This document shows, in pieces, positions 29,576 through 60,920 of a stretch of DNA of 64,000 bases (the first letter of the stretch is position 1; every line of letters starts with the position of its first letter). The notes beneath the pieces are model-generated. The model saw only the letters and a list, made by a program, of their open reading frames with translations, was not told where the DNA came from and did no database searches. The position numbers and the translations under genes were made by a program. Origin of the DNA: Malacoraja senta (lineage: Eukaryota); contig CM075989.1 of the NCBI GenBank assembly GCA_038087875.1, positions 15,936,001 through 16,000,000 of the forward strand. The letters run 5' to 3'.

Positions 29576-29579
29576 CCAA

Positions 29580-39063: not shown

Positions 39064-39217
39064 TGATATTTTGGGTCGGGTGTCGAGTCTGAAGAAGGGT
39101 CCTGACCCGAAACGTCACCCATCCTTTTTCGCCAGAGATGTTGACTGACCCGCTGAGTTAATCCAGCACTTTATGTCTATCTTCAGTATAAACCTGCATC
39201 TGCAGTTCCTTTCTACG
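39064..39217 (+). mobile_element. Penelope-like pLTR insertion (putative donor of the transduction)
   Basis: 14-bp TSD CA(A/G)TATGCTTAAGG at 39050-39063 and 39218-39231; intact hammerhead core. Confidence 0.78.
39089..39116 (+). ncRNA. Minimal hammerhead ribozyme motif (Penelope-like pLTR)
   Basis: CTGAAGAA-GGGTC(CT)GACCC-GAAACGTC; core intact. Confidence 0.68.
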
Positions 39218-39483
39218 CAGTATGCTTAAGGAATCTGGCATACTCCAAGTTGGAAGCCAGTGCTCCATTGCTTGGATTATTAAATCTATGCATTTGGATC
39301 CAAATGCCACAGGCACAAATAATATGGCAGGTGATTTTTGGAACACATGCTGAAGGGAAGCCACCTTGAAGATGTGAAAAGCTGCAGACTTGTCCACCTA
39401 GTTGTTCTCACCTTAATGTGGCCCATACAAGGGGTCCCCATGTTCCTCTGTGCTCCAACCCTAAGCCCAAACCAAAGAGCTGT

Positions 39484-39795
39484 GGGCAGCACGATGGTGC
39501 AGTGGTAGAGTTGCTGTCTTGCAGCGCCAGAGAGCCAGGGTTCGATCCTGACTACAGGTACTGTCTGTAGGGAGTTTAAGTACATTCCTCCCATGACCTG
39601 CATGGGTTTTCTCCGAGATTTTCAGTTTCCTCCCACACTCGATAGACATGCAGGTTTGTAGGTTAATTTGGTTTTGATAAAAATTGCAAATTGTCCCTAA
39701 TGTGTAGGATAGTGCTAAAGTGCGGGGATCACCGGTCAGCATGGACTAGGTGGGCCAAAGGGCCTATTTCTGCACTGTATCTCTAAACTAAACTA
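39484..39795 (+). mobile_element. tRNA-derived V-SINE (HE1-like)
   Basis: A-box TGGTGCAGTGG, B-box GGTTCGATCC, V-domain, CTAAACTAAAC tail. Confidence 0.87.
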
Positions 39796-41014
39796 TCCTG
39801 GGTTCAGCATGCAGCCAGTAACTCCTCACTGCCTGCTTTCACACAAATCACATGCTAGCTCAGGAGATGTTTATTCAGCAAAGCTAGAGATGAAAAACAG
39901 ACATTGCCCCATTCTGTGGAAACCAGAGTTGAAGTTAAGAGGCCGGTGCAAAGCATGACTTTTCATTTAATGCAAACCTTCATATCAGATACAGCATGGA
40001 TTGTGATCTAACCGGCAATCGTTTCATAGTGGAAGCTCGTGGCTTCATGAACTTTCCAAAGAGTTCAAGTAAAAACAAAGTCCGCACCTTGACCACTGAA
40101 ACTCATGAAAAGTACACAGCAGCTTACAGAATTGATTGAAATAAATTGTAAATGCAGAGGAGCTTATTTTAAAGATGTAGTTTACAATGGTTTAAAAATA
40201 GTTTTCCATTCCTAGCAGCTTTAAATAAAAACTTGATGTGAGCTACATATGTACCGGCTTATCGCCTTGATTAAGCATGATCCAAGCAACTAGCATAGTA
40301 TTCACAAGGTGAAACTTTGCTAAAGATGAGGGTCCATTCCATACCTCATACATTCATTAGTTGTTATCTTCTGGGTTTTTCTCCTAAACACTTATATTTT
40401 TCCCTCAGGAATGTGTGCGGTATGTACTTCATTCATTGTACAAGCTTCCTGATTTCTCATTCCTGAACCCCTGATGTTACTAGAATTAAAATAACTCTTT
40501 GTTCTGCTTTTGTCTACAATTTTGCATGGCCAGAAGGCTCCATTTCTCCTTTGATCCTTTTAAAAAGTATGATCCCCTGTAACATGTTTTCACAATGCGT
40601 TAGTTATCTTCACCTCTTTTGCTGCATACTTTCAGGGATAATCTTTTTCCTGTCCACATCAGACCCAATCTGTTTGTCTACAGATGGCCATGGCTACTTG
40701 GCCATCCAGGAAATCTATGTGCTCTGCATTGTCTGCGCAGCACATCTTTAAAAAACGTTATGGAATGTGGACATCACTGGCAAAGCCAGTATTTACTGCC
40801 CATCCCTAACTTCCCTTGAAAAACTGGTGGTGGCCACCTTCTTGAACCAAGGCAGTTCTTCTGGTGAAGATGTTCCCAGCACACTGCTGCGAAGGAAGTC
40901 TCATGATTTAGACCCCGTGGAGATGAAGGGCTGTCACAGAAAAGTGTTGTATTTGTTCTCTGTTGTGATGTTGTTAGTAATACTTTCTTCCAAAACAAAA
41001 GATGACACTTTTAT

Positions 41015-41348
41015 GTTTAGTTTAGTTTAATTTAGTTTAGAGATACAGCGTGGAAACAGGCCCTCAGCCCACCGGGTCCGCAACGACCAGCGATCCCCGC
41101 ACATTAACGCTTTACTACACACACTAGGGACAATTTACACTTATTGTATACCAAGCCAATTAACTTACAAACCTGTACATCTTTGGAGAGTGGGAGGAAA
41201 CCGAGGATCTCGGAGGAAACCCACGCGGTCACGGGGAGATTGTACAAACTCTGTACAGGCAGCACCCTTGGTCGGCATCGAACCCGGGTCTACGGCCCTG
41301 CAACCACTGTAAGGCAGCAACGCTACCCAGGCGCCACTCTGCCGCCCG
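41015..41348 (-). mobile_element. tRNA-derived V-SINE (HE1-like)
   Basis: Full-length copy of the same family. Confidence 0.85.
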
Positions 41349-41902
41349 TCCTTGAAATGAATTCTTTACAAATTCTGTGGTAGAATTTCAACTTTGGCCC
41401 TCATCATAAAATATGCTGTTTTCTAATGTGAAGTTTCCGTTCAAGTTTCTTTTTAAGGTTATTGCATATCAACAGAGAATTGCTCCTGAAAATCAAAAAG
41501 AAAATTGCAGCTGCTGAAAATCCAAAATAAAATCAGAAAATGACAGCATCTGTAGAAAACAGAATCATATTTTAGGTTGAAGACCATTCGTTAGAAACAA
41601 TTCGTTAAAACCAGTCAGTTTTCAGTCACAGAGATTGTGGATTGATGGAACAAAGAGAATATCTCTAATACAGTGATGCCAGGTTTATCATAGGTTAATC
41701 TGGAGATGAAGTCACCTGGATCATTGGTTAATGAGGGAGGTAGAGATAGAGAACATGAATAAAGGAACATAAAAGTTTTAAAAAACCCATAAAGGAACAC
41801 ATAAAAAAACGTAATATCTGCTAGAATGGAGAGCAATAGATAACCAGCAGGTTAGGTCATGTTAATGGAGAGTAAAATACTGAGCTGATATCAAATGAAT
41901 GA

Positions 41903-42030
41903 ATAGGAAGGAAGTGCAGATACTGGTTTATACCAAAGATAGATACAAAATGCTGGAGTAACTCAACAGGTCACGCAGCATCTCTGGAGAAAAGGAATAG
42001 GTGACGTTTCCGGTTGAGACCCTTCTTCAG
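41903..42030 (-). mobile_element. Penelope-like pLTR copy
   Basis: Same pLTR consensus; hammerhead core at 42003-42030 with a mutated stem II. Confidence 0.7.
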
Positions 42031-42519
42031 ATGAATGATCTGTGGACGAACTCTGATGCATGATGAGAAGGTGACATTGACAAGAAAGACAACCTGATCT
42101 CATAGAGCTCAGCACTGGTTCCAGAAGGTGCACCAGCCCAAAAGAAAGATGAGGTGTTGTCCCTGAAGCTTACGTTGAACCTTGGTATAACAGTGCAGAA
42201 GGCCAACCATGGATAGGACAGAGGGGAGGCAGGATGGACAATTGAAGAATCTTTCCTGAAGCAGTACAACCATTATAGATTGTATAATTCTATTGTATAA
42301 CCATAATATAATGAGCACCTCTGCATTTGCAAATACTTGTCCATAAAAATGGAACTAGCAGTCATATTAATGAAGTGAAAATGAATTTAGCACAAAATAT
42401 AAACATTATGTTCAATGGTTGTTAGTGACTTTAAAAACGGGATTGTTTGTCAGAACACACTAGGCAGTATTTCTCAGTATTTGATACATTTGTTAATATA
42501 CGTTAATATATATATATAT

Positions 42520-42752
42520 AGGAAATGGGTGGTGAATCTATGGAATTCATTGCCACAGAAGGCTGTGAAAGCCAAATCAATTAATATTTTTATGGCCGAG
42601 ATAGATAGATTCTTGATTAGTATAGGTGTCAGGGGTTATGGGGTGAAGGCAGGAGAATGGGGTTAGGAGGGAGAAATAGATCAGCCATGATTGAATGACG
42701 GGGTAGACTTGATGGGCCAAATGGCTTAATTCTGCTCCTATCACTTATGAAC
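42520..42752 (+). mobile_element. CR1-clade LINE 3' fragment
   Basis: VVNLWNSLPQKAV..FMAEIDRFL and 3'UTR. Confidence 0.85.
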
Positions 42753-43579
42753 TACATTTTACAAATGTGCTTAGTAATATCCCATTGTCTAATATTTAGT
42801 ATAATATTAATCCCCACTAATATCACAGCAAATGGGCAAACAGCAAAAACTGTCCACACTCACCATTCTGTGCTGAGGTCAGTTTATTGACACAGGTAGA
42901 TTAAACCAACGTTAAAGATTGTGTAAGATTGGTGTCATTTTGTTTACATTTCTGTGATTTTTGTGTAATTTTGTTTTGCTTTTGTGAAACCAGCATAAAC
43001 TAGTGAAAACTTTTCATCTATGTGTTTGAGTTCAGCCTTCTGGTGACTATAAATCCTAGAACATGTTAAACATCATCATTCAGTGCTAAAGTTCAATTCT
43101 CTTCACATAATGTGGGTTATTCAGTTTAGTTTAGTGATACAGCGCGGAAACAGGCCCTTCGGCCCACGGAGTCCGCACCGACCAGCGATCCCCGCACATT
43201 AACCTATCCTACGCACACTAGGGACAATTTTACTTCGGAGTCACGTGAGTGACTACGTGAAGAACCCCGTCAGGGCGCATGCGCGTCATTACGTCTGACG
43301 CATTGGCGACAATGGCAGAAGGAGCACGGAGCTCCTGCTGCAGGTGAGTAATTACAGCTCCACCAAAGTCGGGGAGACTTTGGAGGAGTTAGAGAAAAAG
43401 CGAGGAGACTGGTCCGGGCAAGGGACGAGTCCAGCTACGATGCAGCGCAGTTGGCGTTCGGCTGTAGCAGCGCCAGGGAAGGTGAGATATCCAGCTCGAG
43501 GCCGGGGAAGAATGCCAGGGGGTAAGGAGGTAAGTGGGTCTGGTTCTCATGTAGACAGATCTAATGTGATACCTCAGAT

Positions 43580-44920
43580 ATGTTTATATTGAAGGTTATA
43601 GAAGGATATAGAACAAAGCTTAATGCAAATTCTGATTTACCCATGCAACATGTTCCAAAAAAGCAGTTTGACTTCAGTATCACTGAACAATTGGAAGTTC
43701 AGTTGGAACTTGCAAGGTTATGTAATAAAGGTGTAATTGCTAAGGCAGTTTACCAAAGCCATTAGTTTGTGTCCAATATCTTTCCCAGACCAAGCAAGGA
43801 TGGGGGATGCAGAATTATACTGGACCTGAATAGTCTTAACCCTTTTGTAGGGTATAGACATTTTAAGATGGAAATGTTTGTGAAGGAGATCTTAAAGAAA
43901 CGGATTCAGTGTCTGTTCATTTGCAGGATAGAAGATTTAAAATTCAGCTGGATGGGGCAATTATTGCAATACCATGCATTGCCTAATAGTTTGTCTTCAG
44001 CTCCTAGAGGGATTACAAAGTGGTTAAAACCTATTCTAGGCATGATGAGAAGTCAAGGACATGTGCTCATGGCTTAACTAGATAATATCTTGATTGTAGA
44101 ACAATCAAAGGAAACAGCTGAAGTGGCAGTTGGGAAAAAAAAAAACAAGGAATAAAAACACACAATTTTTAAATTGGGTTTCATAAGCTATCCAGAGAAA
44201 TCTAAATTTATACCTGTGACACAAATTGACTAGTTGGGTTCACAATAGACTTAATCAACATGATTGTGATCTTGCCCAGGCAAAAAAGGGTAGAGCTAAT
44301 TAAGAGCTGTATCAAGTTAATTGCTGACACACAGCCTTCAATTAGCCAGGTGACAGGTCTGCTGTGGTAATTGCTGGCAGCATTTCCAGCAGTTCAATAT
44401 GGCCACTTTATTATCTACAATTACAAAGGTCAAAGGAACAAGCATTGAGGATACATTGGGGTTATTATAACAGACCTATGCTTCTATCAATAGAGGCTGT
44501 TGCTGATGTACAATGGTAGATTCAGCATGTGTCCACTAGTAGTTCCAAAGTGTTATTGGACCAAGCTTCCATGATTTGCAGACAGATGTCAGAGCACTTG
44601 GGTAGGGTGCTACTGATACAAGATCCAGCTGTGGAGACAGATGAACATTGCTTCTGCAAACATGGGGATAACCAAGAGTATTTTATGGACTCAAGGCTTA
44701 TGGCACAAACTAAACTACTTTGCATGTGCAGTGCAAAATAGACAGCACTATAGCAGTTGCTGATATGAATCACATGGGTGGAATAAAATCGTTATCATGT
44801 GACAGGTTGGCAAATACAATTGGACCTGGAGTAGGGATAGAGAGATTTGGATTGGAGCTATCTATCTGCCAGGTAAACTTAATGTAGTACCAGATGGCAG
44901 GTCACGAAAATTACGTGATA
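43580..44920 (+). pseudogene. DIRS reverse transcriptase / RNase H remnant
   Basis: SNIFPRPSKDGGCRIILDLNSLN..FKME; LPNSLSSAPR; the YLDD box has decayed to *LDN near 44075; RNase H-like IDSTIAVADMNHMGG and YLPGKLNVVPD. Many stops and frameshifts. Confidence 0.85.
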
Positions 44921-44931
44921 ATACAGACTGG

Positions 44932-45290
44932 ATGTTCAACCAGGATGTGTTCAAGAACATAGTACTTCTATATCGAAGGCCAAAATATGTTTCATGGGAA
45001 CCAGATTCAGGGGCAGTGGCAATTGATGCTTTTTCACTAAATTGGGATGATATGTTTGTGTACATTTTCCCACCATTCTGCCTCATGGTGTTTGAGAAAA
45101 TCAAGCAGGATGCCGCTTCAGGGGTTTAGGTGATACCAAATTGCCCGATTCAACCATGGTTCCTTTTCAGGTTACAGATAGCGATCCAACCTCCTTTTGA
45201 TGATTCCAAACAGTAGGAATTTGCTGGAGCATCCAGGAACGCGTTAAGTTCATCTGTTATGTGATCGTATTGATCTGTTAATTTGCAGGT
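44932..45290 (+). pseudogene. DIRS methyltransferase-like domain remnant
   Basis: AIDAFSLNWDDMFVYIFPPFCL..KIKQD matches the DAF..W...Y.FPP motif of the Dam-like domain found after RNase H in DIRS elements. Confidence 0.7.
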
Positions 45291-45298
45291 TTGTAAGA

Positions 45299-46254
45299 AT
45301 GCCTTACATTGGTCGAGGACTTTCTAGGCCAACGGTGGATATACTCACTGCAGCCTGGAGAAAGAGTACTCAAAAGCAGTATTTGACTTATGTAAAAAAA
45401 AAAATTAAAAAATGGGAACAATATTGTGTTCAAAAGAATATGCAATATGAAATTGTAATTATTGAAAATGTGTTAGAGGTTTATCTACACTTTATTATGA
45501 TGAGGGTCATAGCTATAGTGCTATCAATACAGCTAGAAGTGCTTTGTCGGCATATCTTGTAATAGGTACACGGACACAAAGTATAGGATCTCACCCTCTC
45601 ATATCTAGGTTGATGAAAGGAATCTTTAATTCCAAAACGCCTAAGCCTAGGTATATGGTAATCTACGATGTAAGCGTTGTTCTTAACATGCTTCGTCATT
45701 GGGTCCCTGTCACGTCTATAACTTTGCTGAATTGGCTATGCTAATGGCATTGGTGTCAGTACAGAGAGTGCAGACTTTGCAAAAACTTCAGATCGAGAGA
45801 ATGGAAGTGAATACAGAGAATGTTCTGTTTTATATTTCTGACCTGCTCAAACAAAGCAGGCCAGGTGTGACAGGATTTAAGATTGTGTTCTCAGCATATC
45901 CTACAGCTCCATGTTTATGTGTAAGGACACATTTGTTACATTACATTGAAGCCACAAGGGCTTTAAGACAAGAAGAAACAGGATTATTTGTCAGTTACAA
46001 GAAGCCAACATAAAAGAGTGGCAGTTCAGACTATCTCAAGGTGGTTAAAGCAAGAGTTGGTTCAGGCAGGAATTAACACTTATGTGTTTACATCTCATCC
46101 CACTAGTGCAGTAGCAACATCCGCGGTCAGGGCGATGGACGTTCCCATCGACCATATATTAAAAGCCGCAGGTTGGAAAAATGAACTTGTGTTTCAGCAA
46201 TACTACCATCGGGCGATTGCCAACTCAATATTGAGTGCTGTTGCTATTGTTTAA
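45299..46254 (+). pseudogene. DIRS tyrosine recombinase remnant
   Basis: AWRKSTQKQY; LALVSVQRVQTLQKL-like box I; TISRWLK; H-S-T-R box decayed to HPTS; ILKAAGW..F..YY. Split by frameshifts over four ORF-track entries. Confidence 0.88.
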
Positions 46255-47547
46255 AGTCTGTTTTCAATACTGTTTCATTCTGTTTCGTTTGTTGCCCCTA
46301 CATTAAGAGGGTTTATTGGTTGTTTTATGACCAAAAATAAAACTGTTTTGTTTTGGCATGATATGCAATGTCATGTTTACAGCATTATTGATGATACTCA
46401 GAGTCAATTGATGCAGTGAGAAGCCGGGATTTTGATCTGCGGCATAAAAATCACAGAGCTTTAAAATCTTCACGTAGTCACTCACGTGACTCCGAAGTAA
46501 AATAGTAAGATTAAACGAGAACTTACCAGTTTGAAGTTTGATCTTTATTTTATGAGGAGTTACGTTGGTGATTACGTGCCCGCCACGCCCAACCCTCTCT
46601 CATATAAAAAGGGTCATAATGGTAGTTCTCATGTTGATCATCTTAATATGTTACTTCAATTATGGTGTTGTCTGTGATTTCATACCGCTGCTTTGAAGAT
46701 TGACGCGCATGCGCCCTGACGGGGTTCTTCACGTAATCACCAACGTAACTCCTCATAAAATAAAGATCAAACTTCAAACTGGTAAGTTCTCGTTTAATCT
46801 TACTATTCATATTTACACCAAGCCAATCAGCCTACAAACCAGTACGTCTTTGGAGAGTGGGAGGAAACTGAAGATCTCGGAGAAAACCCATGCGGTCATG
46901 GGGAGAACGTACAAACTCTGTACACACAGCGCCCGTAGTCGGGATCGAACCCGGGTCTCCGACGCTGTAAGGCAGCAACTTTACCACTGCGCCACCATGT
47001 TGCCCACTGCTATCTGATCCAGATGTGAGTTCTTTACACAGCAGGTCACCATCGAAGACAATGCGTTTACCATCTGCAACACTGAGCTTCTTGGATAGTC
47101 CCAGTTTAATTTGGTTGATTGAAGGAGAAACTAGCAATGAAATGGTATTTCTTAATGTGTTTCATGACCCTAGTTCCAGAACAATTCCCCAGCTTGCTCA
47201 ATGTGATCGCTCTTTGCAGTTTGCAGTAACCAATCATTCACTTCACATAGAAACATTGGGTGCAATGTTATTTGTTCACATCACTTAAAGTTAACCTGCA
47301 CTGTTTAAAGTTCCCTTTCACTGCAATAAGCTACCCTGCACCTGTTAAATCTGAGGAAGGGTCTCGATCCGAAATGTCACCCATTACCTCTATCTGCCTG
47401 TCCCGCTGTGTTACTTCATCATTTTGTGTGTATCTTAGTTTAGTTTAGTTTAGATTAGAGATACACTGTGGAAACAGGTTCTTTGGCCCACCATGTCCGT
47501 GGCGACCACAATCACCTGTACCTGTACACTACACTAGTCCTATCTTA

Positions 47548-48062
47548 AGGGCCTGTCCCACGAGCATGCGACTGCATGCGGCAAGCGTGATCTAACGTGG
47601 TCGCTTGAGCCGTACGGCCTCGCAGGGCCGGTCCCACTTCGATCGCCGGAGCCGCATGGAGTTGTGCGGAGCTGGTCCCGACATCGCGTGGGGCTCCGAA
47701 AAACTGACAGTGTTCAAAAATTCCGCGTGGCAACGGCCTGCCGGCCCGCAGCCGCATTGAGGCCGTGCGCACCGCCTTGCGGGCGTGTGCAGCGTCTCGA
47801 CGCCGTATGCAGTGTCTTGACGCCGTGCGCAGCGTCTTGACGCCGTACGTCACGCGCGAACTTCCCGCGGACTTCGCTCGAACTTCACGTCAATCACTCG
47901 ACCTCCGCGCGGCCCCCGCTTCCGGTTTGGTCACGCTCGCCGCATGCAGTCGCATGCTGGTGGGACCGGCCCCGTACAAGGATCACTCGACCTCCGCGCG
48001 GCCCCCGCTTCAGGTTTGGTCGCGCTTGCCGCATACAGTCGCATGCTCGTGGGACAGGCCCT
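47548..48062. mobile_element. PIF/Harbinger-like MITE
   Basis: TIR AGGGCCTGTCCCACGAGCATGCGACTG(C/T)ATGCGGCAAGCG of about 40 bp with 1 mismatch. TTA TSD at 47545-47547 and 48063-48065. No transposase ORF. Inserted into a SINE tail. Confidence 0.85.
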
Positions 48063-49491
48063 TTACACACCAGGGACAATTTACGCAAGCTAATTAATCT
48101 TTGGCTTTGAGGAAGACCAAGAGGGCAGTGCAGGTCAAATTGTATAATTACTTGACTTTGCATCACAGCCATGAGCTCCGATACTGAGGAGGCATAAACA
48201 TAGTAAATACCGTGTTGGCACGATCCACACACTGTAAGAGACGCTGGAGCTGGAGTGGGGGTGCATTTACTTTTGTTGCCCCTTATCAGAGGGTAAGACT
48301 TAAGTTTGTGGTGCCACGCAGGATTTTGATGGGAAAGTCAGCGAGTCAGCCGACAATGGCAGGTTGGTAGCTGAACACAACATAATGCAGGCATCGAGGC
48401 TGCTGCCAGAAAGCTCACGCTCGCTGTCAAGCAGTTTGGAGGAGGTTGCCGCCAACTTGGCCCAGGGCTTTGCACAATGCTTGGAGCCCATCCTTTCCAG
48501 CCTGGCAGAGGTGGCCAACTCCATCAGCAACCCCCACGATGGCATGGTGTGAGAGCCACTGCCTCAGCTTTCACCTCGGAAAAGCAGGCACCACTGAAAG
48601 ACTGAACGCTGGGCTGCAGGCTCAGACCCAGCCCTCTCTGGTCAAGGAAGATCAGATCAGAAGTGCGGGCATTCACAAATTATTGCATTTCAACAGCAAT
48701 AACGCAGTGCATACTTGCGTGCAGCAACCGTGGACAATATTTAGGCATGAACCAATAAGTAGCAAGAATATTAGTGTGACAAAACTTTCAAACAATGATC
48801 GTTTCCATCAAGAGAGTGTCTAACCATCATCTTCCGACAATCATTGGCATTATCACCACCACCGATTCCTCCAGCATCAAAGTTCTGGTGGTCACCAAGG
48901 ACCAGAGCCTCATTGGCATCAGCCACATAAACATTGTAGGCGCAAGGAAGGTGAGAGACTGGGTTTGTTGTGGCAAGTGACACACCTTCTAAACCCAATT
49001 CCTTGCCACCAATCTACAAGATATAACTCAGCAACATGAGTTCTGGTCTGAATGACTGCAGCACAGAAAACTCACTAGAAGGTCATCATCATCCAAGTTA
49101 AAAGAGCCTGCTGGTTGCTATCTCCTGCACTACCCTAAACCCTCATTCCCTCTGCTACCACTATGTATGTAGTGGCCGCAGCCTGTCCTATCTACTAAAT
49201 ACACTGCAATTCCTTACCTGGGCTACTTTCAGCAATTGTTAAAGCTTTGATCTCTATTGGCAAGCGTGCCAAGCAAGGGAACACAGCACCTGCGGGATTC
49301 CCTCTAAGTCACGTGGCAGCCTGACTTGGAAGTATATCGTCCTTCAAGGGTCTAAATCCTGGGACTTCCCACCCAACAGCACTGTGAAGCACCTTCAGCT
49401 GAAGGACCACTGCAGTTCAAGGAGGCATTCTCCACCACTCACCACCACTCACCACCACCCTCACCAAAAGGCAGCCAGGAAACAGACGATA

Positions 49492-50124: not shown

Positions 50125-50752
50125 GTGGCCAAGGCCTACTGGATCACCCGGTTGCTAACCATTTAAACTCCCATTACCATTCCCATACTGACCTCTCTGT
50201 CCTGGCCACCTCCATTGCCAGACTGAGGCCACACCCAAACTGAAGGAACAGCACCTCATATTCCACTTGGGTCATTTACAACCTAACGGTATAAACATTG
50301 AATTCTCCAATTTTAGGTAACCCCTACAAACCGCACCCTCTCCCTCCCCTCCCCCCCCCCCTCCCTCCCCTTCCCCCCCTCCCTCCACCTCCCTCCCCTA
50401 TGCCCCACTTGGACTTGCACCTATTTCTCCAATCCCCCTCCCCCCACATTCCTTCCTCTGGCTTCACAATTCGCAATGCCTCAATCCTTTTGTCTCACAC
50501 CTTCGGTTTTAATCTCTGGCCTTTGTTTCAACCATATGCTTAACTATCCCCCCCCCCCTCCATCATCTGTGTCTACTTGCCATGCTTTGTCCTGCCTCTC
50601 CTCTCTCCCAGCTTTCCTTCCCCCACCCCCACCCCCACCCCACCACAAACAAGGGTCACTTATCCAAGTTCTACAGAGATGGTGGCTGTGTTATTGCAGC
50701 ACTTTGTGTCCTTTTTTTTGTAAACCAGCATCTGCAGTTCCTTGTTTCTACA
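50125..50752 (+). mobile_element. Penelope-like element 3' fragment
   Basis: GIY-YIG C-terminal-like PVANHLNSHYHSHTDLSVL..HCQTEATPKLKEQHLIFHLGHLQPNGINIEFSNFR, followed by a C-rich tract and a pLTR tail. Confidence 0.75.
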
Positions 50753-51974
50753 ACCCTGGCTTAACTGCTTGTGTTTGAAACATGGTGCAGTTGTATTTGA
50801 TCTGAATATCTCTACCTTCCAAAGAAATATTGATTTAAAATGGTGCGCTGGATGCACTGGGATGGGCTTATCCCTTGCTAAATCTGGGCTCAAAGGGCAG
50901 CACACGGAAGAAGGTCAACTGGACTCAGGAACTCGGCTTCACTTGAAGCAAGAGCAAATCCTTTTACTTCTGCTTTCAACTTGAAAACAGATACGTTCAA
51001 GTGCAATGGCTTTCAGGGCACCAGCTATAGACTGCGAAGGTTTCAGCTGTGCATTAACTAGAGTTGCACATTAAGCATATATTTTACGAGCGGTTGATGG
51101 CCCAATAACATCCATTCACCTAAGTCTGCTATCAGAAGATCAGGCTGATAAGAGCATTTACAAGGCAATTTAAAAGGATTGAAGTCAAGCCTTTGCTGAA
51201 GAATGTTTTTATAGTTCATTGTGAGATTTGAGACCAGTGGATCTTAGCTAATAATGCATAAAGAAGAAAATGTATTTATATTGTACGAAAGCAGTAAAAA
51301 TAAAAGACATCTGTAAACAGAATAGATCCTTCCAGACAAAGCAGTAGCATTTAGCTTTTAAGTGATGCCTTTTGTCTGATAACATGGCCAAAGGCACCTC
51401 ACGAGCGAGCGTACTACCACACAGGCTTGAGGCAGGGCTAAAGGGGCAAGCATCAGGAGAGGTAAATTTGGTTTAAAAAAGACAGTTTTAAACGTCAACT
51501 TAAAAGAGTAGGAACAATGAAACTTGGAATTAGAATTCCAGAGCTTGGTCCTCAATGTTAGGGGATGGAAGAGAGGTTAGAGATGGAGGAATGCAGAGGT
51601 CTAGGGGAGAATACATGGGTTTGTTGAGACCATGCAGGGATTCCAAAGTAAACATAAGAACTGAATATGGTGATATTGGTGAACAGAGACCTGAGGTAGC
51701 ACAGATGTATGAGATGAATGAGATAGTACACGTTAGGACACAGACAGCAGATGACTAGTGTGTGAACATTGGTAAATGAAAGGCCAGTTTATTGCAAAGT
51801 TGCAACTGGAGGTTTCAGAAGCATGGATACACGACTCCACTGCTGTTTTGACTGAGGTGGAGGGGGAGATAGAAACAGAGATGGAAGCAGACAGTTTTTG
51901 CAAAGGAGAGCATTGCAATGAGGAGGTTATTGGGAACCAAAGCTGTTATCAGGCAAATGAACTATTTGACCAAA

Positions 51975-52500
51975 ACTAGAGAGCAGGCCTGAACTACTAT
52001 CTACCTCAGTGGGAGACCCTTGGACTATCTTTGATCGGACTTTACTGGCTTTATCTTGCACTAAACATTATCCACATTATTCTCTTTATCTTGTTTCTGT
52101 ACACTATGGACGGCTCAATTGTAATCATATATTTGTCTTTCCGCTGACTGGTTAGCACGCGACTAAAGCTTTTCACTGTACCTGAAAATTGAACATGTAT
52201 ACCTCCCAATTCAGGAACAGTGTCTTTTAGCTATTATTAGGCAACTGAACAGTCCTCTCACCAGCAAGAGTGTGGTCCTGAGCTGCCATCTACCTCATTG
52301 GAGACCTACAAACTATCCTTAATCGGTAGTTAAAGAACTGGACTTTATCTTGCACTAAACATTAAACCCTTTATCCTGTATCCGTACACTGTGGACGGCT
52401 TGTTTGCAATCATGTATAGTCTTTTCACTGACTGGATAGCACGCAAAAAAAAAGCTTTTCACTGTTCCTCAGCACTCATGACAATAATAAATTAAACTAT
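51975..52500 (+). mobile_element. Two tandem LINE 3'UTR copies (Rex1-like tail)
   Basis: About 51975-52185 and 52200-52500 are diverged copies of one unit; an antisense copy lies at about 15715-15845. Confidence 0.6.
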
Positions 52501-53654
52501 GCTAAACCAGAATGAGAACTGTGAGGAAGGGCAGGGTCGAGCCAAAATTGACAAGGAAATCTGTAAAAGCAGAACCTGTTTATTACAAAGGAACAGGATT
52601 TGTGTAAAAAGTGTTGGAGGAACTCAGCGAGTCAGGCAGCATCTGCGGAAGGAAGTCACACAGTTGCACATCACAGACATAAGATACCAACTCTGTCAAA
52701 TGTGTGTGATGCAGCTTACTATAAATTGAGCACAACATTTATTAACACCTAGTCTTCCATGATTCAAAGTCTAAGCTGTAGTTGTCTCTCAAGAAAAAAA
52801 TGGACAGAATTCATCAGTGCCCTCAGCACTACTTTTGCTGGAATGACTGCAGCAAAAATCACATTTTGGGAATTTAGAATATATTGTCCACACACCCTTT
52901 GCATAAATAATAAAGCAAACGGCTGAAGGGAGTTAACCTGGCATGCATCTCGAAAGATAAGGAATTGGAAGCATTTTGGACTAAAATTAGTAAGGACGAT
53001 TGCACAACAAAGATGATATTACAAAGGAAGAAATGTGGGTGAAACAATGTGACTTTAAAAAGCCATCACCGAACTACATGGCAGCTTCTATAAAGTTACA
53101 GGTGTGGGTTTTCCAAAAGGTAGCAAATCAGACCAGTTAGCTTGGCATCCGTAGTAGGGAAACACTGAAATCTGCTCCGAAAATAATGATCGGTCAGACA
53201 CAACATGGATTTATGAGAGGGAAATTAGTTAGGCAAATCTGATCGAGTTTTAATGATTTTGTAATTATCTAAAGAGATAAGGAAGAACCAAGAGATACGA
53301 TGTCCTTGGCTTGCTGAGGTGCTTAAGCTGTAAAGCAAAATCAGAATGTACAGGGTTGGGGGTGTAATTACTGTTCACAACTTATCTAAAAGATTCTTCT
53401 TCCAATGATTAAATTAAGTTCACGAATAGTTTTTTCCTTTGCCAACTTGGTTTATAATCTGTCCCTTTTTAGGGCATTGACTTTGTTTTCTCCTGTGACC
53501 ACTTTCATCGCTGCAGCACTCTGAGATCCCCCTTTCCTGCTCTCTTATCTGTCTTTGATTTTCACGATGCCTTCATTGGTGGCTGAATTATTGCTTGCTG
53601 AGATCTAAGGCTTTGGACATTAACCTTTCACCAGCTTCTCCAGTTTCCCCAGTT

Positions 53655-54230
53655 TGAGAGTCAAGTCAAGAGTGAAAACTGCTTCATTGTCATATATACT
53701 GATAACGAAATAATGAATTTCTTATTTGCAGCAGCACAACAGGCCTGTAAACAAAATATTGCATGCTAGCATATAATAATGCTTTAAAAATTAAATAAAT
53801 TAATAGCCCCAATACTACTGCAAAAAAGCCCAAAATCCTTAGTCCAAAGGCCTTAGATCTGAAGAAGAGTTCCGACCCGAAACATCACCTATTCTTTCTC
53901 TCCAGAGGTACAGCCTGGCCCCGCTGAATTACTCCAGCATTTTGTGTCTATCTCCTAAGTTCAAAGTTTAGTTAGTGTTGTGCAGTGTTGTTGTTGTTGG
54001 GAAGAAGCCATTCTTAAAGCAGTTTGCAGACCCCTACACCTTCTTCCCAATGGTAGGAGTGAAATGAGAGCTTGGCCAGGATGGTGTGGGTCCCTGATGA
54101 TGCTGGCTACCTCGTTCAGGGAGCGCCTCCTGTAGATCCGTTCGATGGTAGAGAGATCAGTATTCATGATGGACCAGGTTGTGATCGCCACTTTCTCATT
54201 CTTCCATTCCCGGGGGTTCAAGCTGTCAAA
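53655..54230 (-). mobile_element. Rex1/Babar-like LINE 3' fragment, interrupted by a pLTR
   Basis: IYRRRSLNEVASIIRDPHHPGQALISLLPLGRR resembles the Rex1 ORF C-terminus. 3'UTR similar to 330-430. pLTR at about 53857-53953. Confidence 0.65.
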
Positions 54231-55698
54231 ACCAGTTCCTTCTCCTTCCTTAAGCCCTTGGGAAGATCTACCTTTTAAAATTGTTCCATTCCTTGCACCC
54301 AAATCTTAGTCAGACTTATCTCATGGTTGTGGAATCAAGGTTTGATTACTGGGTGATCATAGCAATATTGTCAAAGCAGTTTTTGGATGATATGATGAAC
54401 AACCTCTCACACGCAATCAACCCAAATAGTTTCCCCTCAATCTAGGTCATATTGATGTTTCTGGAAACTTGCAGCGTGCAAATTGGTGCTGTTTTTCCCA
54501 CATTACAAGTATAATTACACTTCAAACTTCTCACAGGAGTTGCAAAGCACTTTGAAACGATCTGAAAGGACATGATACATTAAAAAAATTTATTGGCTAT
54601 GCCACAATATCAGTTTCTGTTTCGGATTGACTAACAGCGGGCAAAATCTCCCGAGTCTTGAGTGCTGGGGAATATGCCAGGTCGGAAGTAATTCAGTTGT
54701 CACAGCAGAGCCAAGCAGGAGAGGCCGGGATCACATCAGTGACTGCCAGAGAGAGAGGGAATACGTGAAAAGATTAAAGTGGAAACTTAAAGAGAATAAA
54801 GAAAATAATTAATGGGTGTGGAGAGAAGAGATGGGTGGCCAAAAGAGAAAATATATTTCTCTCCTTGTAATTAATACCCCAGGAGGGCTGCTTCAGGCTT
54901 GTATGAACCTCTCTGAAAAGCCAGTAATGGATTCCATTGAATCTGAAGCACTAAATGATTTTGTTTCTATGGTTAAAATTCAGTCCTGGATTCCTTCAGA
55001 CAACAGCATGCTGTTTAATTGCAGTATGACTACATTCAGTTCAACACCCCAACTCTCGTCTCTTTCAATAAGCAGCTTTCGCCATCATTCAGGTGCAGAC
55101 ATTATTGGGGCTGTCAGCGCGGGGAACAGATGAGCAGAACCCAGTCGGAGGAGAGTCACTATCCTTGTTCCCACGATTCAAACCATTTCAGTTAAGCATT
55201 TACCACCGCGCCACAGTCCCGTGGGTTCATTAACTTGACTTGCCAGAGATGCCGTATTCATCTTGTGTACCAGGCACTGTTTTCCAATCAAGACACTCAG
55301 TACAATTTATAACCTGTGTGTTGCTACATCAGAAACAGGCATCGTGAACAATGAGCTGGATCCTCAGTGTTATGTGAAATGGCCCACATTGTTTTAATTC
55401 CATCAATTATTATTTGTTGTTGTTTCTTGAAGCCTTTGTTACTTCTTGCTTACAATTAAAATAAGTTAGATGGATCTAGTTAAATAAGTTAAAAGAGCGT
55501 TATTTAACACGGCCATTTAAAATCATTTACAACTTAAATGTTTTACTATGAGGTCAGATCCTCTGACATTTAGTGTGGGTCCATGACAATATGTGGAAAT
55601 ATTGGCATTATATTCCTTGGTAAAAAATTAAAGTACACTGTTCTCTCGCTGGAGTAACTCTGCGGGTCAGGCAGCATCTTTTTATTTTGAAGAAGGGT

Positions 55699-55726
55699 CT
55701 GAAGAAGGGTCTTGACCCGAAACGTC
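55699..55726 (+). ncRNA. Minimal hammerhead ribozyme motif (Penelope-like pLTR)
   Basis: CTGAAGAA-GGGTC(TT)GACCC-GAAACGTC, preceded by GGGT that can pair with downstream ATCT (two G-U wobbles). Confidence 0.68.
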
Positions 55727-55854
55727 ATCTATTCCTTTTCTCCAGAGATGCTGTCTGACCCGCTGAGTTACCCCAGCTTTTTTTGTCTATCTTCGGTTTA
55801 AACCAGCATCTGCAATTCCTTCCCACACATCTTGCTATCCATGTTCTCCAGAGC

Positions 55855-56330
55855 TGAGGTACTGCAGTGTTCTTTCTCCAGAATGTTGCCTGGGATGGAG
55901 CAGTTCAGCTGTGAGGAGAGGCTGGACAAGCTGGGTCTGTTCTCCCTGGAGCGGAGGATGTTAAGATGGGACATGATTGAGATATATACAGTTATGATGG
56001 GTTTAGATAAGATATACCACAAGAAATGTTTCCCATTAACAGAGGTAGATAAAACAAGAGGACGTAGATGTAGCAGATATTAGGTCAAGAGATTCAGAAG
56101 GGATTTGAGGGGGGATTTCCGCATCCAGAGAGTGGTGAGTACCTGGAATGCACTGCCTGAAACTGGTTGGAGTTGGGTCACTGGCAGCATTTATGAAGTG
56201 TTAAGACAAGCACTCAAATCACTGATGCACATAGGGATATGGAGCAAGTGCTGGGAGCAGGGGTTACTATGGAATGTGCCCTGTGGTTAATGTGGATGAG
56301 TTGGGCGGAATGGCCTGTTTCTCTGCTGTA
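55855..56330 (+). mobile_element. CR1-clade LINE 3' fragment (old)
   Basis: RMLPGMEQFSCEERLDKLGLFSLERR and QRVVSTWNALP. Confidence 0.8.
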
Positions 56331-56571
56331 CGGAGTTTGGTTACCGCATGGGTTTTCTCAGATGGTCCGGTTTCCTCCCACATTCCAAAGGTGTGGATGT
56401 TTGTAGGTTAAATGGCTTCTGTAAATTGTCTCTAGTGCTTAGGGGGTGAATGAGAAAGTAGGATAATATAAAACTAGTGTGAATGAATGATTGTTGGTAG
56501 GCATGGACTCGGTGGGTCGAAGGGTCTGCTTTCCATGCTGTGTCTCTAAACCATACTAAACAAAACTAAGC

Positions 56572-58172
56572 TGGGCGGCACGGTGCATTAGAGTTGCTGC
56601 CTTAGAGCGCCAGAGAGACCCGGGTTCGATCCTGAGTACGGGTGCTGTCTGTACGGAGTTTGTACGTCCTTCCCGTGACCTGAATGGGTTTTCTCCGGTT
56701 TCCTCCCAAAATCCAAAGGGGCGAGAGAGAAAACGGGGAATTATAGGCCAGTTAGCCTGACATGGGCGGTGGGGAAGATGCTGGAGTCAATTATTAAAGA
56801 AGTAATAACGGCGCATTTGGATAGCAGTAAAAGGATTGGTCCAAGTCAGTATGGATTTATGAAGGGGAAATCCTGCTTGACCAATCTTCTGGAATTTTTT
56901 GAAGATGTGACAAGTAAAATGGATGAAGAAGAGCCAGTGGAGGTAGTGTATCTGGACTTTCAGAAAGCCTTAGATAAGTTCCCACACAGGAGATTAGTGG
57001 GCAAAATTAGAGCACATGGTATTGGGGGTAGGGTATTGACATGGATAGAGAATTGGTTGGCAGACAGGAAGCAAAAAGTAGGAATAAACGGGTCCCTGTC
57101 AGTGGTGAGTGGAGTGCTGCAAGGCTCGGTGCTGGGGCCACAACTATTTACAATATATATTAATGATTTAGATGATGGAATTAAAAGTAACACCAGCAAA
57201 TTTGCAGATGACACAAAGCTGAGTGGTAGTGTGAACTGCGAAGAGGATGCTAGGAGGTTGCAGGGTGACTTGAACAGGTTGAGTGAGTGGGCAGATGCAT
57301 GGCAGATGCAGTATAATGTAGATAAATGTGAGGTTTGGTGGCAAGAACAAGGAGGCAGATTATTATCTCAATGGTATCAGATTAGGAAAAAGGGAAATGC
57401 AACGAGACCTGGGTGTCCTTGTACACCAGTCACTGAAAGTAAACTGCAGCTACAGCAGGCAGTGAAGAAAGCTAGTGGCATGTTGGCCTTCATAACGAGA
57501 GGATTTGAGTATAGGAGTAAAGAGGTCCTTCTGCAGTTGTGCAGGGCCCTAGTGAGACTACATGTGGAGTATTGTGTGCCGTTTTGGTCTTCTAATTTGA
57601 GGGAGAACATCCTTGCTATTGAGGCAGTTCAGCGTAGGTTCACGAAGTTAATCCCCGGGATGGCGGGACTGTCATATGAGTAAAGATTGGAAAGACTGGG
57701 CTTGTATTCAGTGGAATTTAGAAGGATGAGAGGGAATCTTATAGAAACATATACAATTATAAAAGGACTAGGCAAGCTAGTTGCAGGAAAAAATGTTCCC
57801 AATGAGTCCAGAACCAGGGGCCACAGTCTAAGAATAAAGGGGCCATTTAAAACTGAGATGAGAAAAAACATTTTCACCCAGAGAGTTATGGATTTGTGGA
57901 ATTCTTTGCCACAGAAGGCAGTAGAGGCCAATTCACTGGATGAATTTAAAAGAGAGTTAGATAGAGCTCTTAGGGCAAGCGGAATCAAGGGATATGGGGA
58001 GAAGGCAGGAACGGGGTAATGATAGTGGATGTTCAGCTCCTGCACCTATTTTCTATGTTTCTATGAACAGGTTTGTAGGTTAAATGGCTTCGGTAAAATT
58101 GTAAATTGTCCCTAGCATGTAGGATAGTGCTAGTGTCCAGGGATCGCCGGTCTAAACTAAACTAAACTGAAC
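56572..58172 (+). mobile_element. V-SINE split by the CR1 insertion (56572-56718 plus 58066-58172)
   Basis: Head with GGTTCGATCC; tail resumes as CAGGTTTGTAGGTTAA and ends in CTAAACTAAAC. Confidence 0.8.
56719..58065 (+). mobile_element. CR1-clade LINE, 5'-truncated, inserted into a V-SINE
   Basis: NYRPVSLT, GFMKGKSCLTNL and KFADDTK; SINE head at 56572-56718 and SINE tail at 58066-58172 flank it. Confidence 0.93.
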
Positions 58173-58273
58173 ATGGCTAATTCATTAAGTGCAATAATGA
58201 TCGCAGGAAAATGTGCAGAGAATATTTCATTTTTTTCTCTCGCAATCTGACAGAATGTTTCTAACTCTTTCAG

Positions 58274-58411
58274 GGGCACACCTGAATCCCGCAATTTCGC
58301 TGTCAATGTGTGTACTGGGGCGGCTTCAGTGGTTGAAACTTCCCATCTACTGCACTGCTCAGCTCATAGGAGCTTTTTTTGGTTCCGCAGCAGTTTTTGG
58401 CCTTTATTATG
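58274..58411 (+). CDS. aqp9: Aquaglyceroporin (AQP9-like) coding exon 3, containing the first NPA
   Basis: CTAAC branch-like motif and TCTTTCAG acceptor. 138 nt encoding (G)[51 protein letters not shown] donor. Phase matches exon 2. Confidence 0.95.
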
Positions 58412-58484
58412 GTAAGGCTGTTGTTTTTATATTTGCATTGAAGTAATGAAAACTGCTGCTACTAAATGTTTGTATACTTTATAG

Positions 58485-58603
58485 ATGCCTTCATGAGTTT
58501 TGATGGTGGGAACTTGACAATAACCGGTCAAAATGCAACTGCACACATCTTCTCCTCTTATCCTGCGCCACATCTTTCCTTTACAAATGGATTTGCAGAC
58601 CAG
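58485..58603 (+). CDS. aqp9: Aquaglyceroporin (AQP9-like) coding exon 4
   Basis: TTTATAG acceptor. 119 nt encoding (D)AFMSFDGGNLTITGQNATAHIFSSYPAPHLSFTNGFADQ; the NATAHIF..YPAP.LS..N.FADQ pattern is AQP9-like. GTAAAC donor. Confidence 0.93.
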
Positions 58604-59039
58604 GTAAACATAAATGCTTCCAAACTCATTTTACAGCATGATTTTTCTCAACTGGTTTTGATATGTTGTGCCTGGAACACATTTAAATTATTGGCAACAA
58701 ATCTGTTAAACCTCCTGAAATTGTTGTGGGATTTCATTTTTTTCCTTGCGGATAATGGTTTGCTCAGTCTTCCTGCACTCTTGTGATCAGTCTTCAGAAG
58801 TTGCAGGATAGCACCCTCGGTGAATGCACTCTTCTCCAGGGAAACACTTCACCTTCATTGCCTTCTCTACAATGGCGAAGAGGTGTGGAATTACTGCTGA
58901 TTTGTGACTCAGTTCATTGAGACACCATCGCAGTGCACCCGCCTGTAATCTTTCCACTTGTTCAATATTCTGCATTACAGATCTTCACCCTATCATTAAA
59001 AAAAGCCCAGGCTTTTGTTGCCATTTTGGTTTGAAATTA

Positions 59040-59530
59040 ATCATCAAGTGTAGACTCGGCGACTGTTTCGCTGAACCCTTGTGCTCGGTCCACCAGGGCC
59101 TGCTACATCTCCTGTTTTAACTCCCCATCCCATTCCCACACTGACCTCTCTGTCCTAGGTCTCCTCCATTGCCAGAGTAAGGCCACACGCAAACTGGAAG
59201 AACAGTACTTCATCTGCTGCTTGGCTAGCTTACAACCTTGAATTCTTTCATTTTAGGTGACGAACCTACAAACACCCCCCTTTCTTTTATTTTTTCATCT
59301 TCTCCCCTATTCCCTGTGCCATACCTGGACATGTCCATTTTCCCCCCTGCCCCTCTCCTTCCACCTATATTAATTCTTCTGGCTGTAAATTCACACCTCA
59401 TGTATCCTTATCTCACACTTTTTGTCTTTTCATAATGTACGGCCTTTATCCATCCGTCTGCCTATCCAAAATCCCCCTCACCTGTATCCACCTATCACTC
59501 ACCAAGCTATGTCCTGCCCCTCCTCTACTC
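59040..59530 (+). mobile_element. Penelope-like element 3' fragment
   Basis: RLGDCFAE..SV.QG..FNSPSHSHTDLSVLGLLHCQS.ATRKLEEQ remnant plus pyrimidine-rich 3' region. Confidence 0.72.
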
Positions 59531-60429
59531 GATCTCTGGGTTGAATCCAACTCAGGGACTTGACACACTTCAACATGGACTGAAGAGCCAGAGTCATATC
59601 GGATGTCCTTTAAACTATCCATCAATTGAATTTAAAAAAAGACGAGTTTGTAATCTGTTCCACGCTGGTTCCTGCCTGACAGTGAAGATAAAAAATTGCC
59701 CCATAATTATAAAGGTCTATCTGCCTGTTAAATAGAGTAAGAAAAATGATAACCTTGGCACCATTTGCAAGGTACCAAAAGATTCTCCCAAAAGGCTGAC
59801 CAATGCTAATGTACATACAATGGATTAACTCATCATTTCTCTTGTGAGATCCCCATAAATATAAATTAGCTGTCATATTTCCCACTCAGCAGTGACTCAA
59901 CTCGAGTGCAACTCGTTATGAAATACTTTAGCACGGTCAGGACTGAGACTCTGATATCTTCATCAGTGACAATGAACTATAAAGGTTAACGCTCCTGGCT
60001 GATTGAAAATTCCACTTGTGTAAAGGAACAGTTATCGAACAAGGAACCGTGCCAAGGAACAATGCATGGCAATTTTACTTAGAAAACATTAGTCTTTTAG
60101 TTGAGAAACCCTTGCATGAAAGAAAGATAAAATTAAAATTAAATAATTATATTAGTAGATTGTCACATGGTGTGCATGGAGAAATGCTTGGACTGGTAGG
60201 TGGATAGGAACGATTTAGAGGAGCCAAATGAGAGCAAATGGGATTTGTTCAAATGGGGCATCTTGGGCAACAAAGAAAAAGGAGCAGGCTATGGAAGTAC
60301 ATTAGTTCTTCCCTCAACAATTCATCCTGATATAAATGGCAACTCACATGGACTTGGAAGATCAGATGTTCCCTTATCTGTACTTCAAGATGGAAAGGAT
60401 TGAATCTCTACATGGAAAGGACTCAAAGT

Positions 60430-60920
60430 GATGGAGTAACTCAGCAAGTCAGGAAGCATCTCTGGAGGACATGGATAGTTGGATCATTGGAGAACCTGTC
60501 CATCTTCTCCAGAGATGCGGCGTGACCTGCAGAAAGGGAAACAAGAGATACAGACGGTGATGTAGGGAGATATAGAACAAAGAAAGGCACAGAGGGGGAG
60601 CAGCAGGACTCTCGTCGTGGAGACGAGGAGAACTTCTTCAAACTAGACATACCTTGAGGAGATTACGCAGTGGAGCAAACAAAATGTGCAGGCAGGAACT
60701 GCAGATGCTGGTTTAAACCAAAGATAGACACAAAAAATGTTTGTGCATTCTGTGCATTGATTTATTTTATATCTCTCTATATCACCATCTATCTCTCGTT
60801 TCCCTTTCCACTGACTCTCAGTCTGAAGAAGGGTCTCGACCCGAAACGTCACCCATTCCTTCTCTCCAGAGATGCTGCCTGTCCAGCTGAGTTACTCCAG
60901 CATTTTGAGTCTATCTTCTG
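60430..60920. mobile_element. Composite, rearranged Penelope-like pLTR cluster
   Basis: Several direct and inverted pLTR pieces; intact hammerhead core at 60823-60850. Confidence 0.7.
60823..60850 (+). ncRNA. Minimal type I hammerhead ribozyme motif (Penelope-like pLTR)
   Basis: CTGAAGA-A-GGGTC(TC)GACCC-GAAA-CGTC. Stem III is the palindrome ACGT; predicted cleavage after C60850. Stem I is short. Confidence 0.7.

Follow-up and report, generated by a model that had tools for sequence, protein, structure and literature searches.

Minimal hammerhead ribozymes (min-HHRs) were described by Cervera and de la Pena (2014, PMC4209133) in the terminal repeats (pLTRs) of metazoan Penelope-like elements (PLEs); in their account, these motifs show low activity as dimers and trimers, and between 4,000 and 9,000 of them occur per genome in the coelacanth and in Xenopus. 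Here we describe motifs of this kind in the batoid Malacoraja senta, in a stretch of 64,000 nucleotides (assembly GCA_038087875.1, contig CM075989.1, positions 15,936,001 to 16,000,000; below, the entire stretch is called the window) that contains the first exons of the aquaporin gene aqp9 and, dispersed within and around this gene, copies of a repeat of about 135 nt that is opened by a hammerhead. It is very probable that these short copies are 5'-truncated end pieces of a Penelope-like retrotransposon carrying a minimal hammerhead and, jointly with this, that they decay in a likely neutral manner in and around aqp9 without any useful cutting of the host pre-mRNA. The class, known since 2014, is extended here to a batoid genome.

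Further systems are close enough for comparison. In the Poseidon element PAc of the lizard genus Anolis, the hammerhead is dispensable for insertion in vitro, cuts only in the presence of the element protein, and is reported without RNA-seq ends at the cut site (Frangieh et al. 2024, PMC11167929). Insertions of PLEs are characterized by 5' truncation, inverted 5' copies, and an optional tail of 30-40 bp (PMC8557442), and canonical hammerhead motifs amount to 126,247 in the axolotl (PMC7229834). In the literature on cartilaginous fishes, searched outside subscription papers, Repbase, and Dfam, no description of the present family was found.

Anatomy of the hammerhead motif

A 28-nt hammerhead pattern has 12 matches with at most three mismatches in the window and none in 100 shuffles; it is matched exactly by three cores on the plus strand, i.e., in sense orientation to aqp9, that begin at 39089, 55699, and 60823. 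A descriptor scan of both strands for any minimal type I hammerhead yields four matches only (shuffles: n = 100, mean 0, maximum 0), namely these three and a core on the minus strand at 29383-29410 (hereafter 29410), in which every core nucleotide is present and the four base pairs of stem II include one G.U. The three intact sense cores and the antisense one had been pointed out in a preliminary description of the window, and both scans confirm them; the nine decayed cores listed there are likewise all present (570-, 1387+, 16406+, 22203-, 21927+, 26744-/26742+, 42030-, 47351+, and 53859+). The same description had proposed a search against hammerhead models as a check; in an Rfam scan of the window with E-values up to 1, no hammerhead family was matched. 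Four weak Rfam matches to unrelated hairpin families were rejected, as all of them lie on head-to-head inversions.

The intact cores make up 4 of the 19 core-spanning fragments, and it is in these four that CUGANGA, GAAA, and UH follow each other in type I order. All four possess the extra nucleotide after position 9 as well as the pair G10.1-C11.1 (G-C in 14 of 16 copies), and in all four the palindromic positions 15.2-16.2, which lack a loop 3, read CG; as previously noted, the extra nucleotide and a loopless palindromic stem III are thus seen in the intact copies. Among the copies of the main family, the palindrome has been lost through a CpG-type change in 5 of 15. Stem II consists of 4 bp and a loop of 4 nt, a fifth pair not being counted because it would leave a loop of 2 nt. 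Concerning stem I, the earlier figure of 2-4 bp holds with a restriction: three intact copies have 2 bp, and the 4 bp (two of them G.U) found only at 55699 go back to a tandem duplication of 12 nt (55688-55712) that arose by chance and repeats the beginning of the core itself. Family-wide, stem I comprises 2 bp with A.C at the third position.

With the min-HHRs, the window motif shares the type I order, CUGANGA, one extra nucleotide between 9 and 10.1, G10.1-C11.1, GAAA, the loopless palindrome at 15.2-16.2, an NUH site, the location at the 3' end of 5'-truncated PLEs, and a mostly single, dispersed occurrence; the Acropora Neptune motif (Fig. S3) exhibits the same layout with a G-rich stem II of 4 bp (PMC4209133). 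In the alignment of 56 motifs given there, helix I measures 3-5 bp and in a few cases 2 bp, such that the window motif, with 2 bp in stem I and 4 bp in stem II, stands at the short end; the 40 species of Fig. S3 include no cartilaginous fish (PMC4209133). The intronic hammerhead HH9 of RECK in amniotes is equally intronic, sense, and of type I; however, motifs of this type are described as single-copy, canonical hammerheads that have tertiary loops and are conserved between species, whereas those of the window are minimal, high-copy, and free of any selection signal (PMC6155905). Canonical helices I and III and loop-loop contacts are absent here, stem I having 2-4 bp and loop 3 being missing. 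Taken together, the sequence features support the assignment of the motif to the minimal type I hammerheads of the Penelope class.

The repeat family and its Penelope-like origin

Forty fragments of the repeat, adding up to 3681 bases or 5.8% of the window, are recognized by a profile that was built from eight window copies (which match by construction); none is found on the reversed window. They comprise divergent cores at 6590-, 33936-, 33987+, 34212-, and 62558- in addition to the decayed cores named above, as well as core-less and part-core fragments. The earlier statement that this is the commonest short repeat is borne out as far as the 20 largest repeat families go, most of which belong to this element. 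Twelve head-to-head pairs account for 24 of the 40 fragments. The 3' ends fall into two classes about 30-35 nt apart, situated at positions 102-111 of the repeat model in 11 fragments and at 134-139 in 12, and target duplications of at least 10 nt occur at 6 of 15 loci (five of them credible, 10-17 nt) vs 5 of 210 mismatched pairs. An apparent target duplication at 3096/3230 was discounted, as it represents the element's own tail on both arms. With its inversions, two 3' end classes, and target duplications, the set of insertions matches the build of PLE insertions (PMC8557442). At the margin of the window, positions 1-120 (minus strand) hold the native upstream sequence of another hammerhead copy with C3 at position 1, the remainder of which lies outside.

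The element itself is represented by the ends of open reading frames (ORFs). At four places, such ends match the C-terminus of shark proteins that combine reverse transcriptase (RT) and GIY-YIG endonuclease (E-values from 3e-3 to 1e-12); in one of these proteins, P0003, the Pfam domains RVT_1 and GIY-YIG are found. A fifth ORF end (63135-63069, minus strand) matches the remnant at 50.1 kb. At 29.5, 50.3, and 63.1 kb, a stop codon, a pyrimidine tract, and a hammerhead or its remnant follow each other on one strand, and at the first of these places (ORF end 29516..29605, minus strand) the hammerhead is the intact 29410 core. Overall, a core or core remnant is located downstream on the same strand at three of the four GIY-YIG ends and at 63135-63069. 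The short copy at 42 kb may be a nested insertion, since it has its own target duplication. In the zebra shark, protein P0004 reads through the same ORF end and terminates 129 codons further on in a peptide that resembles the translated hammerhead repeat of the window. Genome-wide, between 878 and 1198 contigs per DNA run carry a C-rich tract directly before the core. Judging from these arrangements, the repeat is identified as the terminal repeat of a Penelope-like retroelement, in agreement with the preliminary description; GIY-YIG ends upstream of some copies, head-to-head inversions, and target duplications all point to it.

In the window, only C-terminal remnants of the endonuclease were found, with neither the RT part nor an intact ORF of the element. 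A CX2-5CxxC linker between RT and endonuclease, which is a mark of Neptune and Nematis (PMC8557442) and is combined in Neptune with a CCHH motif of the endonuclease, is present in four of five homologous proteins, whereas Poseidon is described without it (PMC11167929); the element likely belongs to the Neptune clade, an indirect assignment because the linker region is missing from the window remnants. A further difference is that the ORF of PAc starts inside the hammerhead, whereas in the main window family the core lacks an ATG (PMC11167929). Exact-pattern scans of viral and of metagenome contigs yielded no match in either set, and a protein-based scan of metagenome contigs gave 74 pattern matches, none of which was confirmed. 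Weak, decayed remnants of endonuclease ends (E=0.008) without a hammerhead are also situated at 20033-20243 and 20507-20570 on the plus strand.

Summed contig depth, which gives no copy number, points to a very high abundance of the family both genome-wide and in a relative's putative RNA run: over the repeat, this sum reaches 2.5e7 in run X2, compared with about 22-30 for single-copy contigs. If the window is typical, extrapolation from it to a genome of a few Gb would lead to about 1e5 intact motifs per genome, and elasmobranchs would rank among the vertebrates with the most ribozyme-like motifs per megabase. On the same condition, a density of 4 intact cores per 64 kb would far exceed the min-HHR counts of the coelacanth and Xenopus (PMC4209133).

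Formation of the short copies

The window provides a clean anatomy of short-copy formation, in which copies start shortly ahead of the core, end at either of two 3' positions, and are accompanied by inversions and target duplications. Twelve of the 16 core-bearing copies start 0-7 nt before C3, and in two relatives between 971 and 1046 contigs start 3 nt before C3 behind AT-rich flanks. Genomic copies beginning at the cut site were considered and rejected, only 3 of the 40 fragments starting there. Since the copies carry both sides of the cut site, their template RNA would have been uncut at the hammerhead, and the element's own RT and endonuclease would have made them from it. Reverse transcription would start inside the terminal repeat, which would fit because most copies begin 0-7 nt before the core, and would run to the transcript start or to a stall point just before the core. 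PAc likewise has a pLTR hammerhead and insertions from uncut RNA, and two internal RT starts define its tail of 30-40 nt (PMC11167929). Any real cleavage would take place in the source element's own transcript, in which the repeats may lie about 0.3-3 kb apart and the element protein may assist folding.

In most copies, in the window (e.g., at 60820) and genome-wide, the family has a sharp 5' boundary 3 nt upstream of C3. Transcription may start there, a splice acceptor may be located there, or RT may stall. The sequence at this boundary resembles an initiator consensus.

As to the source of the dominant family, it is possible, with a probability clearly short of even, that it is a non-autonomous tandem unit of about 305 nt, i.e., a non-LTR retrozyme derived from a Penelope terminus, of which the dispersed copies would be truncated products. 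What suggests a head-to-tail unit of this length is the junction at 60525-60740 (minus strand), where the 3' end of the repeat is linked by a high-copy spacer to the native upstream sequence of the next hammerhead; with animal non-LTR retrozymes, the window would then share a type I hammerhead, a unit of about 300 nt as judged from this one junction, and a derivation from PLEs (PMC7229834; preprint 10.64898/2026.07.22.740005). The length is close to the mean of 363 bp given for such units, equally derived from pLTRs, in a chondrichthyan (10.64898/2026.07.22.740005). This junction is, however, the only and a partial one: Tandem Repeats Finder detected in the window no array of head-to-tail hammerhead units of 150-450 nt, and there is no complete tandem with two hammerheads. 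Partial tandems are, moreover, normal for PLEs, the 29410 core is directly tied to an ORF end, and the hammerhead is minimal, whereas described retrozymes mostly have canonical hammerheads with a stem I of 6 bp (PMC7229834). Under this explanation, the hammerheads would act between adjacent units, which changes the source of the copies and leaves the verdict on the host gene as it is. Rather unlikely, in turn, is a hammerhead-like fossil that was dead already in the source element. The short family-wide stem I with its A.C third position, shorter than in most of the 56 aligned motifs (PMC4209133), would agree with a fossil, as would the derivation of the copies from uncut RNA and the dispensability of hammerheads in Naiad PLEs (PMC8557442); yet the motif has every conserved position together with the extra nucleotide, G10.1-C11.1, and the palindrome, recognizable cores are kept in divergent families of the window, and a stem I of 2 bp has a precedent in Penelope of Drosophila virilis (PMC4209133).

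The spacer at 60525-60740 contains a site resembling a splice donor at 60653, and directly ahead of stem I the native upstream sequence closes with a pyrimidine tract and CAG. This ending is reminiscent of the intron in the 5' untranslated region of Drosophila virilis Penelope, which ends at helix I (PMC4209133).

Another observation concerns the 39089 copy, which together with 230 nt of downstream intron flank recurs on the same strand in a duplication of 367 nt (16402-16767 vs 39085-39449). Between the two, differences affect 21 of 137 sites in the repeat part and about 11 of 230 in the flank (p=0.0009). The flank at 16 kb is the derived one, since the target duplication sits at 39 kb, and the structure suggests either 3' transduction with a template switch or break repair using a paralogous copy. 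An origin of the 16.4-kb duplicate from cut RNA was rejected, the differences being equally dense after and before the cut site.

Decay of the copies and the aqp9 transcript

The identity of the host gene as aqp9, already given in the preliminary description, is established by sequence matches of exon 2 to 11 elasmobranch proteins, all of which are named aquaporin-9, 9b, or 9-like (best match 95%, sawfish and skate). Residues beyond about 163 of 299, i.e., the later exons, have no match in the window. The 39089 and 55699 cores are both located in the 32-kb intron 2, 16.6 kb apart, and the 60823 core follows 5.1 kb after the latter in intron 4. In run X1, a contig of 1628 nt spans the junction of exons 3 and 4 and then extends for another 1020 nt, for which no match is listed on 58604-61100.

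No sign of selection for or against sense copies is found. Within the gene, 12 fragments lie on the plus and 12 on the minus strand, at 0.59 per kb vs 0.68 per kb upstream, and intact cores are present in three of seven sense copies of the gene vs one of six antisense copies (p=0.56) or one of 12 copies elsewhere (p=0.12). When columns with at least 25% variation are dropped, non-CpG mismatches to the family majority amount to 9/149 in the core vs 49/774 downstream (p=1.0), and the 4 intact cores seen among 15 copies compare with 3.4-3.7 expected under neutral rates. Covariation in stem II, proposed earlier as a check, did not appear: none of the four pairs shows a two-sided compensatory change in 16 window copies, and the score is below that of shuffles. 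This result says little on the identity of the motif, because lack of compensation is expected for decay after insertion from one source.

The folding of the RNA as predicted by ViennaRNA buries the core in three of the four intact copies. In longer contexts, the probability of stem II is at most 0.01 at 39089 and 29410, 0.4 at 60823, and 0.8 at 55699, and that of stem I is at most 0.014 in all four; in short contexts, the copy's own downstream pyrimidine tract pairs with the purine run of the core in all of them. For the kiss between two stems III (4 bp), energies from -1.7 to -3.1 kcal/mol are predicted, and cofolding favours a duplex of swapped stems II over the stem III dimer. Under an assumed random-coil model, the paired fraction would range from 5e-6 to 5e-3 at 16.6 kb and from 3e-5 to 3e-2 at 5.1 kb, compared with 2e-3 to 0.67 in a tandem of 305 nt. 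The copies likely decay neutrally without cutting the host pre-mRNA to a useful extent. If the window is typical, the motif is tolerated in introns in either orientation, which argues for its silence outside its own element. The pyrimidine tract is a family-wide feature, located 5-20 nt after the cut site in all intact copies and predicted to pair with the GAAGAAGGG run of the core; modelled in this way, it could be a built-in off switch. Small PLE hammerheads were reportedly shown to cleave as dimers in a 2017 paper in RNA Biology.

Several points weigh against truncated Penelope ends in neutral decay. No full-length element was recovered, and the second class of 3' ends sits at the edge of the repeat model. 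When dimorphic columns are kept, the core looks better preserved than the downstream part (9/149 vs 99/953, p=0.10; p=0.07 with all 19 copies), and with 15-19 copies the power of these tests is low; the neutral expectation, moreover, uses CpG rates from the same copies. The CpG at C11.1-G12 has decayed in 1 of 15 copies vs 5 of 15 at each of the two remaining hammerhead CpGs, although the figure for a control CpG located downstream, likewise in a CCCG context, is 2 of 15. Sense orientation within an intron is seen in three of the four intact cores, and the six core-bearing copies situated upstream of the gene include no intact one. An old age of the intact 55699 and 60823 cores would follow from the apparent presence of their insertions in two relatives at a distance of about 4% in intron sequence: in these, contigs that leave unique flank and extend 29-31 nt into the repeat (55648-55676 and 60889-60919) suggest shared insertions, the overlap being at or below the 31-letter bridging rule and the contigs breaking about 30 nt inside the repeat, before the orthologous cores. 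One contig joint of run X2, which begins at 60850, was left out of consideration. Finally, ViennaRNA contains no terms for the tertiary core, and the folds refer to 37 C and lack a comparison with a minimal hammerhead of known activity.

Two explanations would nevertheless give the cores a role in host RNA, which, if true, would be a new route for transposon action on it. According to the preliminary description, two sense copies in one nascent aqp9 transcript would pair by the 4-nt stem III, cut the intron co-transcriptionally, and, as the explanation is framed here, alter the output of aqp9. All three sense copies indeed have every core nucleotide and a self-complementary stem III, two of them share intron 2, the spacing between 55699 and 60823 is 5.1 kb, action as dimers is the published model for the class (PMC4209133), and in the predicted fold of 55699 stem II is retained, enclosed by a hairpin that the inverted arm of this insertion forms. 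We nevertheless consider such cutting extremely improbable, given the lack of a selection signal, the buried cores, the weak kiss, the preference for swapped stems II, and a predicted pairing of 5e-6 to 3e-2 at 5-17 kb; introns cut by slow hammerheads are, besides, reported to be spliced normally (PMC2995048, citing Dye 2006 and Fong 2009). Alternatively, the cores may be latent, cutting only with Penelope protein (e.g., in the germ line) or with partner RNAs in trans and causing occasional, unselected intron breaks, for which we see a small chance. The Anolis PLE hammerhead is protein-assisted (PMC11167929), the family is abundant by summed contig depth in the genome and in the relative's putative RNA run, and the pairing of the pyrimidine tract with the core, predicted in all four intact copies, is one that a protein could unfold; on the other hand, the window has no intact ORF, and the intact four differ from the family majority by 2-8% at non-CpG sites, which speaks for an old burst. 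The widest version, in which elasmobranch introns hold about 100,000 intact, folded-shut Penelope hammerheads that cut nascent transcripts such as that of aqp9 at fixed sites once element protein or partner RNAs are given, amounting to a transposon-controlled, transcriptome-wide intron cleavage, appears slightly less probable still than latency as such. Truncated Penelope ends in neutral decay are thus the preferred reading.

Table 1. Position of aqp9 exons, hammerhead-bearing copies, and endonuclease remnants in the window
Feature	Position	Strand	Remarks
Intact core, aqp9 intron 2	39089..39116	+	predicted cut after C39116; stem I 2 bp
Terminal-repeat copy with 39089 core	39086-39218	+	~135 nt; 14-nt target duplication 39050-39063 / 39218-39231
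Intact core, intron 2	55699..55726	+	predicted cut after C55726; copy 55697-55831; stem I 4 bp
Inverted short arm of 55699 insertion	55648..55681	-	head-to-head structure
Intact core, intron 4	60823..60850	+	predicted cut after C60850; stem I 2 bp
Copy with 60823 core	60745-60920	+	~80 nt of native pyrimidine-rich upstream sequence retained
Inverted arm of 60823 insertion	60525..60740	-	repeat 3' end, spacer, then native upstream-of-hammerhead sequence
Intact core, antisense to aqp9, intron 2	29383..29410	-	one G.U in stem II; 106 nt downstream of endonuclease C-terminus
GIY-YIG ORF end, last 30 codons and stop	29516..29605	-	tblastn E=0.003 to P0003; tblastx E=1e-6 to 50.1-kb remnant
GIY-YIG C-terminal remnant	42136..42291	-	106 nt upstream of decayed 42030 core
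GIY-YIG remnant 50148-50317 (frameshifted), pyrimidine tract, strongly decayed hammerhead, 3' end 50651-50744	50148..50744	+	E=1e-12 to P0003
GIY-YIG C-terminal remnant, frameshifted, intron 4	59043..59238	+	pyrimidine tract follows, no hammerhead
Copy with decayed core 42030-	41899..42033	-	10.1-11.1 pair broken
Copy with decayed core 47351+	47348..47438	+	stem III palindrome lost to CpG decay
Copy with decayed core 53859+	53856..53955	+	
Head-to-head pair, decayed core 570- (A15.1>G)	438..632	.	13-nt target duplication
Head-to-head pair, decayed core 1387+	1292..1491	.	
Head-to-head pair, decayed core 16406+	16288..16538	.	
Tail-to-tail copies, decayed cores 21927+ and 22203- (both U16.1>C)	21924..22233	.	
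Head-to-head pair, decayed cores 26744- and 26742+, intron 2	26644..26874	.	10-12-nt target duplication
Divergent family	62473..63135	-	ORF end 63135-63069, ~500-nt pyrimidine tract, decayed hammerhead at 62558
Inverted arm of divergent-family copy	63143-63199	+	
aqp9 coding exon 1	23496..23600	+	105 nt, AG/GT ends
aqp9 exon 2	25771..25897	+	127 nt, AG/GT ends
aqp9 exon 3 (first NPA motif)	58274..58411	+	138 nt, AG/GT ends
aqp9 exon 4	58485..58603	+	119 nt, AG/GT ends; intron 4 continues past window end

Other elements in the window

Besides the Penelope-like copies, relics of long interspersed nuclear elements (LINEs) with RT are located at 9281-10558, 10833-12500, 21171-21786, and 55798-58045 (Pfam RVT_1 at 11568-12497 and 56679-57680); they are presumably CR1-like, and the segments 9526-9875 and 21171-21520 are 94% alike. 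A broken element in intron 2 (43766-46254, plus strand) contains pieces that resemble RT and tyrosine recombinase (45967-46251: Pfam Phage_integrase, E=2e-4) and is likely a relic of a DIRS-type retrotransposon. At 29469-30790 (plus strand), a broken ORF resembling that of a DNA transposon (Pfam DUF659, E=3e-7) adjoins the 29410 Penelope remnant. A second dispersed repeat of about 300 nt, similar to short interspersed nuclear elements, is present in about 10 copies (38683-39010, 39478-39799, 41010-41339, 46802-47006, 8798-9123, and 61640-61934 among them), two of which flank the 39089 copy in opposite orientations.

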